A stretch of DNA of 64,000 bases from Candidatus Geocrenenecus dongiae. GTDB lineage: Archaea; Thermoproteota; Nitrososphaeria_A; Caldarchaeales; Wolframiiraptoraceae. Both the position numbers and the translations under genes were made by a program. Each line of letters starts with the position of its first letter. The first letter of the stretch is position 1. The notes under the pieces are model-generated. The model was not told the origin of the DNA. It saw nothing but the letters and a program-made list of their open reading frames with translations, and ran no database searches. Positions 48,853-63,239 of the stretch are shown in pieces. The stretch lies in the NCBI GenBank assembly GCA_023267855.1, contig JALNLN010000001.1, positions 23,620 to 87,619 on the forward strand, written 5' to 3'.

Positions 48853-48983
48853 ATATCTATTACCATAAAATCTTCAAAGAGATTTTCTCAAAGATTCGAG
48901 AAAAATGGCCTAACACTGAAAATAGAAACATCTACAATCATTATACAATTTATTATAGAGAATAAGAGAAAATGTATTTAGTT

Positions 48984-49186
48984 TGGGGGCGGTGGGATTT
49001 GAACCCACGTTCTCCGGGTTTCCCCTACTAGAAGTAAAAGCTCCAGCACATCTTCATCCCCAATAAAGGGTCTAGATTGTTGAAATCTTGTAAGCGCTGG
49101 AGCCCGGCGCCGTAGACCTTCAGCCTTTTATCTTCCTGTTTGATCCCCCTCCCTACTCTTTATTTAGGAGTCTGGGCCACGCCCCC
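48984..49186 (-). tRNA. tRNA-Trp (anticodon CCA) interrupted by a 77-nt canonical intron and probably a second intron of about 50 nt in the D-loop
   Basis: The acceptor halves GGGGGCG (49186-49180) and CGCCCCC (48991-48985) are perfectly complementary, with discriminator A. The T-arm is GUGGG-UUCAAAU-CCCAC. The anticodon stem CCGGG/CCCGG (49107-49103 and 49018-49014) carries loop CUCCAG|A, with an intron (49020-49096) inserted after position 37. That intron contains GCUGGAG, complementary to the anticodon loop, as expected for a bulge-helix-bulge. About 50 extra nt lie between the D-stem halves. Confidence 0.6.
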
Positions 49187-55479: not shown

Positions 55480-55527
55480 CAAATTATCGAAAACAATTAC
55501 GATCTCCCTAAAGGATGTGGAATGTAG

Positions 55528-55614
55528 TGCCCCGGGCAGGATTTGAACCTGCGACAACCCGGTCTCCACAATTCTTCTTCAGCCGGGCGCTCTCCCAGAC
55601 TGAGCTACCGGGGC
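55528..55614 (-). tRNA. tRNA-Phe (anticodon GAA) with a 13-14-nt canonical-position intron
   Basis: The reverse complement folds as acceptor GCCCCGG/CCGGGGC with discriminator A, D-arm GCUC-AGUCUGGGA-GAGC, anticodon stem CCCGG/CCGGG with loop CUGAAG|A, an intron of about 13-14 nt after position 37 (boundary ambiguous by one A), and T-arm GCAGG-UUCAAAU-CCUGC. Confidence 0.8.
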
Positions 55615-59789: not shown

Positions 59790-60251
59790 TTAAACTTTTT
59801 CAAGTTTCTCCATGAGCTGCTTTAAAGATTCCTTAACATCTTTTAGAGTGTTTTCTAGTATCTCTATCTTCTTCTTTTCTTCTTCAAGTTTCCTCTTAAG
59901 TTCTTCCAGCTCCTTCGTGGATGGAATCTCGATCTTTATACCTTCTCTTAAGAATCTTTCATATGTTTGTCGGATTAATTGACCTGCTTTCGTTTTTCCA
60001 GTTAGATGGTTACGAATTGTTGCTTCACTTCTACCGATATCTTCAGCTATCTGTGTTATAGTCATTTTTGCTTTCTCCCGGGCTAATGCTGCAGCTGCAA
60101 CTGCTAGTGAATCTACCCATGTAAGTCTTTCAGCAGGATTCTTTAGTTCCTCAATTACTTCTGGACTGAGGATTGTACTTATCAAGAGAGCTGTCTCAAG
60201 TTTATGTATCTGTTCTCTCCCAATAGGTGTTAAAGAAATTTCCTCACTCAT
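59790..60251 (-). CDS. HTH-domain protein with a C-terminal coiled coil (putative transcription regulator)
   Basis: It has a central HTH-like segment (MTITQIAEDIGRSEATIRNHL) and a C-terminal charged heptad-repeat region (KELEELKRKLEEEKKKIEILENTLKDVKESLKQLMEKLEK). Confidence 0.45.
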   Translation of the reverse strand: MSEEISLTPIGREQIHKLETALLISTILSPEVIEELKNPAERLTWVDSLAVAAAALAREKAKMTITQIAEDIGRSEATIRNHLTGKTKAGQLIRQTYERFLREGIKIEIPSTKELEELKRKLEEEKKKIEILENTLKDVKESLKQLMEKLEKV

Positions 60252-60305: not shown

Positions 60306-61685
60306 TTAAGATACTGGTGGTTTTGGAAACCTCTTAATAAGCCTCTCTACATGGCTAGCAATCTTCAGCAGCTTTTTATCTTGTCCTGGTTCTGTGACTA
60401 TCTGTAAACCTATTGGGAGATTGTTTTTCGACAATCCACAAGGTATTGAGATTGCTGGAGCGTAGAGAGAATTGAAGACTTCCGTCATACAGAGTAAAGC
60501 ATACCTAACACTAACTTCCTTCTCTTTAACCTGAACTTTCTCTTCATCTATTCTAGGTGCTTCTATTGAAACTGTCGGTAAGAGGATTGCATCATGATCT
60601 TTCATCACCTTCTTGAATTTTTCTATAGTCTTCATTCTAACTCTTTGAGCATGTATGTAGACAGGAGCCGGTATGAAGTATCCCATCAAGATCCTGCCAG
60701 CAACATCTGGATCATACATACTCCAATAATCTCTAATCCATTTTAAATGGTATGTAGCAGATTCAGATAAGACTATGATGTATCTAGAGTTGGATGCATG
60801 CTTAAACCAGTCTAAATCCTCTAGATAATCTACTTTATGTCCAGCAGAAACGATCTTGTCTATAGTTCTCCAGAAAACCCCCTCAACTTCGCTTGAAGCA
60901 AGTTCTTCAATTATCTTTGCAGGTACAAGAAATCTAAGTTCTCTATCTATTTCTTCTTTGAGATTTTCTGCGAAACCATGTCTGCCCCCTGTCATTATGT
61001 CTAAAACTAGAGCGGTGTCTTCTACAGATTTTGTTATTGGTCCAACAGTATCTAAACTCCATGAGAGAGGTACTACCCCTTCTAAACTCAATAATCCATA
61101 GGTTGGCTTAAATCCTACCACACCACATAGAGCAGAAGGTATCCTAATGGAGCCAGCTGTATCTGTTCCCAGACCTAGTACTGAGATTTCAGTTGCTACT
61201 GCTACAGCAGATCCACCACTAGATCCACCACTAATACGTTCTAGATCCCACGGGTTTCTAGATGTACCATAGTGTGGGTTCTTGTTAGTTACTCCGAAAG
61301 CGAATTCATGCATATTGGTTTTACCGATAATTATGGCTCCAGCTTCTCTCAACCTACCTACAACTTCAGCATCGTAAGATGTTTGGAAATTTCTAAGAAT
61401 CTTAGATCCAGCTGTAGTAGGCATATCTCTGGTATAGAATACGTCTTTAACAGCTATGGGGAGACCGTGTATCAAGCTACGTTGTACGCCTTCTTCAAGT
61501 TCTTTCTCAAGTTCTTCAGCCTGCTTATAAGCTAAGTCTTCAGCAACATATATAAACATGTATAGCTTATTGTTAAGTTCTCTTATCTTCTTTAGTGTGT
61601 GCTCGATAAGTTTCGTAGGCTTCAATTTTAAATTCTTCAATTGGGATGCAAGATCCCTCAATGTATATCTCCATAGATCTAGCAT
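60306..61685 (-). CDS. Amidase-signature family protein (GatA-like amidase)
   Basis: It has the amidase signature GGSSGGSAVAVA and the Ser-cisSer-Lys triad region. It is 459 aa. Confidence 0.85.
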   Translation of the reverse strand: MLDLWRYTLRDLASQLKNLKLKPTKLIEHTLKKIRELNNKLYMFIYVAEDLAYKQAEELEKELEEGVQRSLIHGLPIAVKDVFYTRDMPTTAGSKILRNFQTSYDAEVVGRLREAGAIIIGKTNMHEFAFGVTNKNPHYGTSRNPWDLERISGGSSGGSAVAVATEISVLGLGTDTAGSIRIPSALCGVVGFKPTYGLLSLEGVVPLSWSLDTVGPITKSVEDTALVLDIMTGGRHGFAENLKEEIDRELRFLVPAKIIEELASSEVEGVFWRTIDKIVSAGHKVDYLEDLDWFKHASNSRYIIVLSESATYHLKWIRDYWSMYDPDVAGRILMGYFIPAPVYIHAQRVRMKTIEKFKKVMKDHDAILLPTVSIEAPRIDEEKVQVKEKEVSVRYALLCMTEVFNSLYAPAISIPCGLSKNNLPIGLQIVTEPGQDKKLLKIASHVERLIKRFPKPPVS

Positions 61686-61844
61686 TCTAATTACCTCCAG
61701 ATTTTATTTTAATTAATCTCTAGTTCGAGAAGTTGAGAATCTTCTATAAATTTAGATATATTTTCAGAAGCTTTTCTTAATAATTGTTCATCTATAGATT
61801 CCAGTCTAAATATCTTCTTCACAAACTCCACTCTCTATTCACCT

Positions 61845-63239
61845 TTACTGATTCTGCTGTACTTCCTCTTTTATAGGTATCACTTTGATGTACTCATCTG
61901 TACACTCTATCCTAACCTTACCACCCTCCACTATACCAAACTTCTCTACAACATCTTTAGGTAATGTTATCCTTCTTCCAGAAAGAACTTTTTGAATCTT
62001 CCCATTTGTAGAGTTCTTTACTTCCATTTCACTATTTACTTTTTCGGAGACTGGAGGAGGTGGTGGAGGCGATGGAACTATTGGAGGCGGGGGACTTACA
62101 GTTTTCCCTCTTCTTCTTAAGATATTCAAGACTAGTAAGCTTGCAGCTATACCTCCAATAGCTGCTGACTCAGCGTAGAGGATGTATTTAGTCATGGTGT
62201 TCTCGTTTGTGAGAGATGTGTACGCTAAGTTTAACTCTGAGAGTTGATTCTCTTTCTCCGTAACTTCTTCTTTCAAGTTCTGGATAGTTGATTTAAGCTG
62301 ACCTATTAATTCTATGTTTTCCTCATGTCTACTCTTTAAGTCTACATATCGTTCATAAACATTGTTGTAAACGCCCTGTAGCTGATAGTATTCTTTTAGT
62401 AGAGTTTGATAATCTTCTCTAAGAGAATTGTATAGTGATTGTAGTTGTTTATTATCTTCTATCAAATCTTCATAGAGTGTTCGTAGTTTCTCGTAATCTA
62501 TCTGAAGCTTCCGATACTCTTCACTAACATCCTTATATGCTTCTTCAAGCTTACCATATTTCTTCTTCAATTCTTCATAATCGGCTTGAAGTTTATTAAA
62601 ACTATTTACGAGAGAGTTGTAGCTACTTGAAAGCTTACTATAAGATGAAGATAAAGAATCTAAACTATCCTGAAGCTTGCTTATCTCTGATTTCAAGTTA
62701 TCTATCTTCTCTTCTAAAGTCTTTATTCTCTTCTTCGCTGATTCAAGATCTAATAAAACTTCATTGTAAGTGTATCTTCTAACTGTAGACATGTACCATT
62801 TAACGTAAAGTGCGATTGGATCTGGAGTTATAGAAGGATCTATAATAACCGTGTAAGTTACAGCGAGTTCAGCTAGAAGATATGGATCCGGTCTTCTAGG
62901 GCTTGGAATACAAATCTCAATATTCTTACTATATACATCGCTAGGAGATAGAGTTTTTCCGCTAAGAATCGTTTGGCTATAAATGGTTTCAGTTATACCG
63001 TCTCTATACAATTTTATCGTTAGCACTAGTTCATCTACGATGAGCTGTTTAAGAGCTTCTACTTTAAGTGTAAATGTATAACATGATTCAATCTTAACTT
63101 CTGGTGGATAGTAGAGAGAGATCTTAATGTTCTCGTCTTCCATTATGGTAGTGTAAGCTTCAGCAGAGACAGGTGTTACTAAGACAACTAGTAAACTCAA
63201 TATAATCAGTGGTATCAACGATAGATATCTATTCGTCAT
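61845..63239 (-). CDS. Membrane-anchored protein with a signal peptide, extracellular beta-rich domain, long Tyr-rich coiled coil, single TM helix, poly-Pro linker and C-terminal AbrB/SpoVT-like domain
   Basis: It has a signal peptide (MTNRYLSLIPLIILSLLVVLVTPVSAEA), heptad repeats (about residues 170-340, LxxxYxxL periodicity), a TM helix (YILYAESAAIGGIAASLLVLNIL) followed by RRRGK, then PPPPIVPSPPPPPPV and a swapped-hairpin-like segment (RRITLPKDVVEKFGIVEGGKVRIECTDEYIKVIPI). Confidence 0.55.
   Translation of the reverse strand: MTNRYLSLIPLIILSLLVVLVTPVSAEAYTTIMEDENIKISLYYPPEVKIESCYTFTLKVEALKQLIVDELVLTIKLYRDGITETIYSQTILSGKTLSPSDVYSKNIEICIPSPRRPDPYLLAELAVTYTVIIDPSITPDPIALYVKWYMSTVRRYTYNEVLLDLESAKKRIKTLEEKIDNLKSEISKLQDSLDSLSSSYSKLSSSYNSLVNSFNKLQADYEELKKKYGKLEEAYKDVSEEYRKLQIDYEKLRTLYEDLIEDNKQLQSLYNSLREDYQTLLKEYYQLQGVYNNVYERYVDLKSRHEENIELIGQLKSTIQNLKEEVTEKENQLSELNLAYTSLTNENTMTKYILYAESAAIGGIAASLLVLNILRRRGKTVSPPPPIVPSPPPPPPVSEKVNSEMEVKNSTNGKIQKVLSGRRITLPKDVVEKFGIVEGGKVRIECTDEYIKVIPIKEEVQQNQ

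Follow-up and report, generated by a model that had tools for sequence, protein, structure and literature searches.

The 64-kb window analysed here (the whole stretch of 64,000 nucleotides from the thermophilic hot-spring archaeon Candidatus Geocrenenecus dongiae, contig JALNLN010000001.1, with a GC content of ~0.37) encodes on its minus strand, at 61845..63239, a protein of 464 residues with an ATG start, which we refer to as the stalk protein. The position of this open reading frame (ORF) matched exactly that given in a first-pass annotation of the window. The gene product is labelled 'hypothetical protein' in the public record (MCF8884198.1), which was deposited for Candidatus Geocrenenecus dongiae and several metagenome-assembled genomes (MAGs) of Aigarchaeota/Nitrososphaerota. 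In gene order, its modules are a signal peptide, an immunoglobulin (Ig)-like head, a coiled coil, a transmembrane helix, a basic patch, a Pro-rich linker and an AbrB half-barrel. The stalk protein is a new domain combination in a small, lineage-restricted family, and its architecture has not been described previously as far as our literature search shows: nothing relevant was found on AbrB in Aigarchaeota or on membrane-anchored AbrB domains, and the public annotation is purely automatic. Everything reported here on the protein is computational. A full-length AlphaFold2 (AF2) model was built on a 17-sequence alignment, and the conservation, invariant-column and module-charge figures refer to the 17 aligned homologues. 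The features of the gene, with the evidence used for each of them, are as follows:

61845..63239, minus strand: whole coding sequence, 464 residues plus stop, identical to MCF8884198.1
63162..63239, minus strand: predicted signal peptide, residues 1-26, with R4, a hydrophobic core at 5-24 and V-S-A before and E-A-Y after the putative cleavage point (hydropathy and alignment)
62769..63161, minus strand: Ig-like/arrestin-like beta-sandwich head, residues 27-157 (AF2, Foldseek, invariant columns)
62193..62768, minus strand: coiled-coil stalk, residues 158-349 (single helix in AF2, heptad register, length classes)
62112..62183, minus strand: transmembrane helix, residues 353-376, Ala/Gly-rich, with the motif (Q/E)(T/S)AA(V/I)xG (hydropathy, conservation)
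62004..62111, minus strand: RRRGK and Pro-rich low-complexity tether, residues 377-412 (alignment, between-clade identity)
61869..62003, minus strand: AbrB/MazE/SpoVT swapped-hairpin half-barrel, residues 413-457 (PF04014, profile against PDB, AF2 topology, conservation)
61845..61868, minus strand: short acidic/polar tail (EEVQQNQ) and stop (sequence, alignment)

Kyte-Doolittle hydropathy revealed only two hydrophobic segments, at residues ~5-24 (ending in V-S-A, followed by E-A-Y) and 353-376 (followed by RRRGK). The residue at position -1 of the signal peptide is Ala or Gly in 17/17 homologues, and we infer from the sequence that cleavage takes place after residue 26. In all 42 full-length family members, the net charge of the 12 residues following the transmembrane helix is +2 to +5, compared to -3 to +1 before it. 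As positive charge follows the helix, the positive-inside rule points to an N-out/C-in orientation, which supports a predicted type I membrane protein that exposes its head and coiled coil and keeps its C-terminus in the cytoplasm. Hydropathy and flanking charges thus agree with the topology proposed in the first-pass annotation (an extracellular beta-rich head and coiled coil, a cytoplasmic C-terminus), and the single transmembrane helix (353-376) and poly-proline linker (383-397) that it had described were also found.

As judged from its sequence and by Pfam's own threshold, the C-terminal segment belongs to the AbrB/MazE/SpoVT superfamily, well beyond chance. The PF04014 model (MazE_antitoxin/SpoVT-AbrB; gathering score 24.7) scored 25.2 bits with the whole protein and 30.6 bits (E 3.3e-7) with the isolated C-terminus, and PF04014 is annotated in nearly all homologues. 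A profile built from 20 family C-termini matched in PDB the structures of Sso7c4 (2l66/5itj, E 1.6e-5), Abh (2k1n, 1.7e-4), AbrB (1z0r, 2.2e-4), MazE (1mvf/1ub4, 2.6e-4) and SpoVT (2ro5, 1.7e-3), as well as the evolutionarily related barrel of the Cdc48 N-domain (7dg9, E 1.5e-5). The AF2 model shows the beta-beta-alpha-beta-beta order at residues 414-455 (strands 414-419 and 422-427, helix 428-433, strands 442-446 and 451-455) with predicted local distance difference test (pLDDT) values of 59-68. Swapped-hairpin domains are obligate dimers, and moderate values are expected at this unit because half of such a dimer was modelled alone. The AbrB/MazE-type identity that the first-pass annotation had assigned to the last ~45 residues is therefore borne out by a PF04014 score above the gathering score and by profile matches to solved structures. 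Its proviso that the C-terminus might prove disordered or non-AbrB-like found no echo in the data: this part resembles AbrB and is the protein's most conserved block.

Conservation in the protein is highest in the AbrB module, which is basic in every member. The residues Q416, K417, L419, S420, G421, R422, R423, I424, T425, P427, K433, G439, V442 and P455 are invariant in 17/17, and no run of invariant columns elsewhere in the stalk protein is as long as Q416-K417-x-L-S-G-R-R-I-T-x-P427. The net charge of the module is +4 in the window protein and +2 to +6 across the homologues; the half that comprises strand 1, strand 2 and the helix carries +4 or +5 in each of them. K417 aligns with K8 of Sso7c4 and R8 of AbrB, and G421-R422 with G14-R15 of AbrB; R423 and K433 are also invariant. 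Sso7c4, the closest solved relative in the profile comparison with PDB, is a dimeric chromatin/regulatory protein in which K8, R11 and R22 contact DNA on the top face (PMC5222340). By homology to these proteins, the AbrB module of the stalk protein is probably DNA-binding.

PF04014 is also the family of the MazE/VapB/PrlF antitoxins, and some databases automatically name homologues of the stalk protein 'antitoxin component of YhaV-PrlF'. Both facts would fit a type II antitoxin that is anchored in the membrane and there sequesters or neutralises MazF, VapC or a similar toxin, but we regard this reading as highly improbable. There is no toxin gene adjacent in the window or in five homologue loci (L001-L005), no PADLOC match was obtained for the AbrB domain, and the gene is a stable, syntenic chromosomal one in the close clade, where it lies between the genes for a PUA-domain protein and an amidase. 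The tail that follows the AbrB fold has 7-10 residues in the window protein and the close clade, which is too short for a toxin-binding arm; in the distant clade, it consists of 21-25 acidic residues. The antitoxin assignment was rejected for want of a toxin neighbour and of a toxin-binding tail.

The stalk itself is modelled by AF2 as one continuous helix (residues 158-344), and a single unbroken heptad register covers 189 residues, or 27 heptads (161-349). The first-pass annotation had described a Tyr-periodic coiled coil of ~170 residues; the coiled coil is present with Tyr at position a, but its length had been underestimated. In the window protein, position d is Leu in 21/28 and position a is Tyr in 15/28, with a ladder of Tyr/Phe at 200-298 and mostly acidic residues at g. 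Across the homologues, d is Leu in 82%, a is Tyr in 51% and g is acidic in 40%. If fully helical, the stalk would be ~28 nm long (0.148 nm per residue). All insertions and deletions in the stalk region of the alignment are exactly 7 residues, and the stalk has exactly 191 residues in 11/11 close-clade members despite ~50% identity. The family falls into two classes of stalk length, 176-198 and 130-149 residues. It should be noted that the coiled coil attracted dozens of matches in Pfam, NCBIfam and PADLOC (SMC, Rad50, JetC, LmuB, crescentin, EzrA); these are confined to residues ~160-350 and far below the cut-offs, and were discarded as compositional. The database names 'regulator of replication initiation timing' and 'YhgE phage infection protein' given to some relatives were set aside on the same ground.

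The head is an all-beta sandwich at residues 28-154, with pLDDT ~90 in the full-length AF2 model and pLDDT 88.4 and a predicted template modelling score (pTM) of 0.81 in a head-only model. Cys53 and Cys110 are invariant in 17/17, and their spacing and placement on two strands make an inter-sheet disulfide likely. Other conserved motifs of the head are YPxE, DP(F/Y) and EWYMSxVR. When the head was compared with PDB by Foldseek, only generic Ig-like/E-set sandwiches were matched (TM-score ~0.5, 6-16% identity), including arrestin lobes, TRAP-beta, ML/Der p 2, ApaG and the C-terminal glycan-binding domain of Wzt. No Pfam or NCBIfam model matched the head, and no recognisable sensor or ligand-binding family emerged from Pfam, NCBIfam or Foldseek. 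Within the 64-kb window, neither the head nor the AbrB subfamily has a paralogue.

A word-index search returned 16 full-length relatives with 31-54% identity, and a scan of GTDB species genomes identified the AbrB-bearing stalk protein in 18 of them, all Caldarchaeales/Aigarchaeota (Ca. Geocrenenecus, Wolframiiraptor, Terraquivivens and other Nitrososphaeria). Ca. Caldarchaeum has the protein too. An exhaustive search of 1.84 billion representatives with a profile of the head yielded only ~32 true family representatives, with the head always at ~25-155. The AbrB end is found in 27/27 long representatives, whose stalks have 176-198 residues. The 15 AbrB-less representatives are mostly Thermofilum/Thermoprotei proteins with stalks of 130-149 residues and cytoplasmic tails of 5-65 residues (median ~27), often with a poly-Pro end; these remote relatives share the head, stalk and transmembrane helix with the window protein. 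One of them (ABL78400.1, UniProt A1RYX0) comes from Thermofilum pendens Hrk5, a cultivated organism with a complete genome, and offers an experimental entry point to the family. A long stalk without AbrB also occurs in the Aigarchaeota lineages P0028 (two assemblies) and P0025, and a split-gene test found no AbrB ORF or frameshifted remnant downstream of either. The first-pass annotation had held that orthologues without the C-terminal domain would speak against its reading. On this point the outcome is divided: the domain is kept in all 27 long representatives and is absent from the remote Thermofilum/Thermoprotei relatives and from the two Aigarchaeota lineages. Downstream of the stalk gene of P0028 lies a 50-aa ORF (L029 5318-5470, MSVDKELADLRERVARLEAKVDEMSKRLDALSNYAKELYQYIQKLSRPLV) that has the look of a small coiled coil and is not AbrB-like.

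The signature of the AbrB module is also found in free-standing 'QKVLSGRRI(T/S)' AbrB proteins of 49-94 residues from Nitrososphaeraceae and metagenomes. Besides fragments of the stalk family, a search with a profile of the AbrB subfamily returned only free-standing proteins of 47-97 residues, and no other long or membrane architecture with this subfamily appeared in it. Together with the lack of any paper on such a fusion, this upholds the earlier view that the architecture is unusual. Given that the remote relatives have the head, stalk and transmembrane helix and no AbrB, the AbrB module would have been added to an older stalk family, and the simplest history is the fusion of a soluble AbrB gene onto an older envelope-stalk protein in Caldarchaeales. 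Two of the free-standing proteins, of 59 and 49 residues (L024 1960-2139 and L025 5980-6129, both Nitrososphaeraceae), carry the signature 'YQKVLSGRRI(T/S)L' as in the C-terminus of the stalk protein. The gene in L024 lies near a 404-aa ORF (375-1589) that by eye is tyrosine recombinase-like and near small ORFs that by eye are ribbon-helix-helix-like, which suggests an integrated element.

Between clades, the identity is 0.49 for the AbrB module, 0.50 for the transmembrane helix, 0.36 for the head, 0.31 for the stalk and ~0.05-0.06 for the linker. The transmembrane helix and its preceding turn (residues 350-376, window 62112-62192) read L-T-K-x-I-L-Y-A-Q-T-A-A-V-A-G in most homologues and are rich in small residues. 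As the helix is both small-residue-rich and as conserved as AbrB, its sequence suggests specific helix-helix packing in the membrane. The linker varies from 16 to 36 residues among the homologues, contains in the window protein the poly-proline stretch PPPPIVPSPPPPPPV at residues 383-397, lacks poly-Pro in the distant clade and has AF2 pLDDT <50 over residues 387-412. The AbrB-less relatives P0044, P0045, P0049, P0038 and P0025 stop soon after the transmembrane helix in a poly-Pro run (e.g., '...RRKASLPPPPPPPPP'). A poly-Pro motif next to the membrane on the cytoplasmic side thus seems to go back to the ancestor of the family, and it may be a docking site for a partner.

Features of this region would also suit a latent, membrane-tethered transcription factor, in which envelope damage leads to cleavage in or near the transmembrane helix or linker and releases a soluble AbrB dimer, following the logic of SREBP/ATF6 or of anti-sigma regulated intramembrane proteolysis. 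The disordered linker would be open to proteases, small-residue-rich transmembrane helices are typical of intramembrane-protease substrates, and the free-standing AbrB homologues show that the module can be soluble. The ~5%-identical linker, however, shows no visible conserved cleavage motif, and no protease gene is conserved nearby; we consider such a release mechanism very unlikely.

A further reading accepts the strut and denies DNA binding to its AbrB end, whose role would instead be to dimerise inside the cell and so clamp the stalks together into a lattice, or to dock a protein of the cytoplasm, for instance one of the cytoskeleton or of cell division. Swapped-hairpin domains, being obligate dimers (as in the Sso7c4 dimer), are natural cross-linkers, and the conservation of the transmembrane helix at the level of AbrB suggests specific packing. 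The protein-binding Cdc48 N-domain double-psi barrels score as well as AbrB against the family profile, the helix arginines that are key to DNA binding in Sso7c4 and AbrB are absent, and the cytoplasmic poly-Pro tail of the AbrB-less relatives is a typical protein-docking motif. Every swapped-hairpin AbrB/MazE/SpoVT domain characterised so far, however, binds DNA, and the module of the stalk protein is basic throughout the family and has four invariant Lys/Arg on those elements that would be expected to face DNA. Moreover, the proteins closest to the module are small, free-standing and AbrB proteins of DNA-binding type, and no conserved partner gene is found among the neighbours. On balance, a clamp or docking role is possible and rather unlikely.

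The first-pass annotation had suggested ToxR-like signal transduction. In a one-component sensor of this kind, the head would bind an external ligand and a signal would pass via the coiled coil and transmembrane helix to shift the dimerisation or DNA binding of AbrB and thereby alter transcription. In its favour, the predicted topology combines an extracytoplasmic domain, a single transmembrane helix and a cytoplasmic domain of DNA-binding type in one chain, and membrane-bound one-component regulators are known in bacteria (ToxR, CadC) and Crenarchaeota (ArnR). The register is strictly kept from the head to the conserved transmembrane helix, with insertions and deletions of whole heptads only, which would suit conformational signalling. 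Such signalling would be uncoupled, however, by a ~5%-identical, length-variable, Pro-rich tether, and a rigid stalk of 28 nm is unlike known sensor domains. The head matches no sensor or ligand-binding family, the same ectodomain occurs in 15 representatives with a cytoplasmic tail of only 5-65 residues and no output domain, and no conserved target or regulon gene is found nearby. Given the fixed length within lineages, the whole-heptad insertions and deletions, the small binding-type head and its occurrence without a cytoplasmic output domain, the outer part looks like a fixed-length structural strut or ruler and unlike a sensor. A ligand sensor is thus unlikely, and this part of the earlier interpretation is not supported as it stood (the head has no ligand family, the stalk is ruler-like and the ectodomain exists without an output domain); the topology, the AbrB identity and the rarity of the architecture remain.

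In the window, the stalk gene is preceded by a gene for a PUA-domain protein and followed by a conserved 37-aa ORF and the genes for an amidase, a helix-turn-helix (HTH)/coiled-coil protein, CutA and an ABC transporter. The order of PUA protein, stalk gene, small ORF and amidase is kept in the close clade (L001, L004, L005) and lost in the distant clade (L002, L003), and a conserved operon partner was rejected for this reason; unrelated neighbours lie beside the stalk gene in the Thermofilum-type loci. In the window and the homologue loci, no toxin, protease, S-layer gene or regulator travels with the stalk gene.

Several observations were made on the neighbouring genes themselves. The 37-aa ORF (61709-61822, minus strand, VKKIFRLESIDEQLLRKASENISKFIEDSQLLELEIN), situated between the stalk gene and that of the amidase (60306-61685), has a conserved counterpart of 49 aa in the corresponding place of a Nitrososphaeria MAG (L001 9368-9517); it may be a small subunit or GatC-like remnant that accompanies the amidase. 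A 153-aa protein encoded at 59790-60251 (minus strand) matches HTH models weakly, at scores under the thresholds, and has a C-terminal coiled coil rich in charged residues; it looks like an uncharacterised small regulator. ARAGORN predicted an 80-nt tRNA-Thr with anticodon AGT at 48983-49062 (minus strand), which did not reach the Rfam gathering score, and a tRNA-Ser with anticodon AGA at 55527-55614 (minus strand). A34 anticodons are unusual for archaea, and both tRNAs may be intron-containing genes or have miscalled anticodons. In two Thermofilum-type MAGs (L026 7611-7991, L027 6739-7119), a 126-aa soluble ORF without a Pfam match is translationally coupled to the AbrB-less stalk gene by a stop/start overlap and could be a separately encoded cytoplasmic partner. 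On one Thermoprotei-type contig (L028 8048-8821), a gene of the BacA family (polyprenyl-diphosphate phosphatase) directly follows the AbrB-less stalk gene; this adjacency, with its envelope and glycosylation function, was seen once and may be due to chance.

The reading that we favour, tentatively and at somewhat less than an even chance, is that the stalk protein is an envelope-spanning homo-oligomeric strut whose cytoplasmic AbrB ends pair and bind DNA at the membrane. In the pseudo-periplasm, by analogy with SlaB and Saci1846, the stalk would act as a strut or ruler of fixed length and would place the head near the underside of the tall, PySLP-like surface layer (S-layer) predicted for Caldarchaeales. 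AbrB half-barrels from the same or neighbouring stalks would pair into the obligate swapped-hairpin dimer, which would bind DNA at the inner face of the membrane via the invariant K417, R422/R423 and K433. Envelope and chromosome would thereby be physically coupled, by a nucleoid-membrane tether or by a membrane-resident regulator with a DNA-binding valency set by the assembly of stalks; the protein would not work as a ligand-sensing receptor. Caldarchaeales would have gained the AbrB module on top of an older family of stalks that function in its absence.

A 2026 preprint predicts self-anchored, 'colossal' PySLP-like S-layers for Thermofilales and for Caldarchaeales (Wolframiiraptor, Terraquivivens, Caldarchaeum), and the PySLP measured in Pyrobaculum arsenaticum reaches 37 nm from the membrane (10.64898/2026.08.21.746120). 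The stalk family was found in the same two groups, Caldarchaeales and Thermofilales. A stalk of ~28 nm plus its head would be of the right size to span most of a PySLP-type pseudo-periplasm. As these lineages are predicted to have self-anchored S-layers, the stalk protein is probably not the S-layer anchor.

Several points weigh against the proposal of a strut with a DNA-binding end. Some concern the AbrB module: TIGR01439 (looped-hinge-helix AbrB) was a near miss (26.7 bits for the isolated C-terminus and 21.6 for the whole protein; cut-off 28.3), and Foldseek with the full-length model returned no AbrB structure among its matches, so that the support for AbrB consists of sequence profile and topology. 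DNA binding is itself deduced solely from homology, and R22 of Sso7c4 and R23/R24 of AbrB, the arginines of the helix, align with V431/E432 and are not conserved. Others concern the strut and its setting. A predicted self-anchored S-layer needs no stalk as an anchor, and the contact proposed between the head and the S-layer is hypothetical; a trimeric stalk would mismatch a dimeric AbrB unless there is cross-pairing between stalks. The AbrB-less forms within Aigarchaeota show that the function can, at least in part, do without the module, and the gene neighbourhood, which is not conserved between clades, holds no functional clue.

A stronger version of the strut proposal is that the stalk protein is a true trans-envelope tether, with the head making contact with the S-layer canopy from below, or with some other structure of the pseudo-periplasm, and the AbrB dimer holding chromosomal DNA at the membrane, as an archaeal counterpart of a bridge of the linker of nucleoskeleton and cytoskeleton (LINC) type. 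We consider this doubtful. If true, such a bridge would tie the position of the nucleoid, segregation or gene expression in Caldarchaeales to the geometry of the envelope. The links between the archaeal S-layer envelope and the cell interior are largely unknown. In Sulfolobus, S-layer mutants have changed chromosome copy numbers and division defects, and no molecular link is known (PMC10903991; PMC6712394; PMC12207459). Because the stalk protein is conserved and would reach from ~28 nm beyond the membrane into the cytoplasm, where it ends in a domain of a DNA-binding family, it is a testable candidate for such a link. A type I membrane protein that ends in the cytoplasm with an AbrB/MazE fold is also an unusual natural case, which widens the known architectures of this superfamily and of archaeal membrane-tethered DNA-binding proteins. 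The tall envelopes of PySLP type that were lately described for Thermoproteota may contain the stalk family as a component that has gone unrecognised.

With Sso7c4, AbrB, Abh, the N-terminal domain of SpoVT and MazE, the stalk protein shares PF04014, profile matches with E-values of 1e-5 to 1e-3, the beta-beta-alpha-beta-beta order, the G-R loop and a basic face. Those proteins, however, are small and soluble or are N-terminal domains of soluble regulators, whereas the AbrB module of the stalk protein is C-terminal and tethered to a transmembrane helix and stalk. ToxR/CadC and ArnR resemble the stalk protein in combining an extracytoplasmic part, a membrane anchor and a cytoplasmic domain of DNA-binding type, which would act on DNA at the membrane, in one chain. 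They differ from it in having an N-terminal winged-helix/HTH domain, type II or C-terminal-anchor topology and compact sensors, while the stalk protein has a C-terminal AbrB module and type I topology; no winged HTH domain was found in it by Pfam or NCBIfam. Tetrabrachion of the hyperthermophilic Thermoproteota member Staphylothermus marinus also has a long, membrane-anchored coiled-coil stalk across a wide pseudo-periplasm (10.64898/2026.08.21.746120). It is, in contrast, a very large S-layer protein with a tetrameric stalk of ~70 nm within the lattice protein and no cytoplasmic domain, and no homology to it was seen.

The closest body plan is that of SlaB, the stalk and anchor of the S-layer in Sulfolobales, which consists of three Ig-like sandwiches, a trimeric coiled coil of 132 residues and a transmembrane helix at 448-470 of 475 (PMC10903991). 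Together with the auxiliary stalk Saci1846/M164_1049, it holds the Sulfolobus canopy ~37 nm above the membrane (PMC12207459; PMC6712394). The likeness extends to the signal peptide, the N-terminal Ig-like head, the long parallel-type coiled coil and the single C-terminal transmembrane helix, and to height, in that SlaB holds SlaA ~30-37 nm above the membrane and the stalk protein would measure ~28 nm plus the head. The stalk protein, however, has one sandwich instead of three and a helix of 189 instead of 132 residues; it continues for 88 residues after the transmembrane helix, including the AbrB fold, where SlaB ends after 5. The SlaB model NF040788 scored 24 bits against a cut-off of 700 and matched the coiled coil only. 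NCBIfam and Pfam gave no SlaB homology in the head, and no SlaB-like protein with three sandwiches was present among the ~32 representatives of the head-profile search. SlaB is encoded in a slaA-slaB operon, while no slaA-like or large surface-protein gene lies near the stalk gene in the window or L001-L005, and the stalk protein occurs in lineages predicted to have self-anchored PySLP-type S-layers. Membership in SlaB was rejected on sequence, C-terminal architecture and gene context, and the resemblance is one of body plan alone. Saci1846/M164_1049, a second membrane-anchored Ig-like protein that supports the canopy beside the main anchor, is a likeness as an auxiliary archaeal strut. Compared by description only, it differs in belonging to the thermopsin family and having three Ig-like domains, with no coiled-coil stalk or cytoplasmic domain reported. 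The stalk protein is thus SlaB-like on the outside and like a one-component regulator in its overall logic, and it is a member of neither family.

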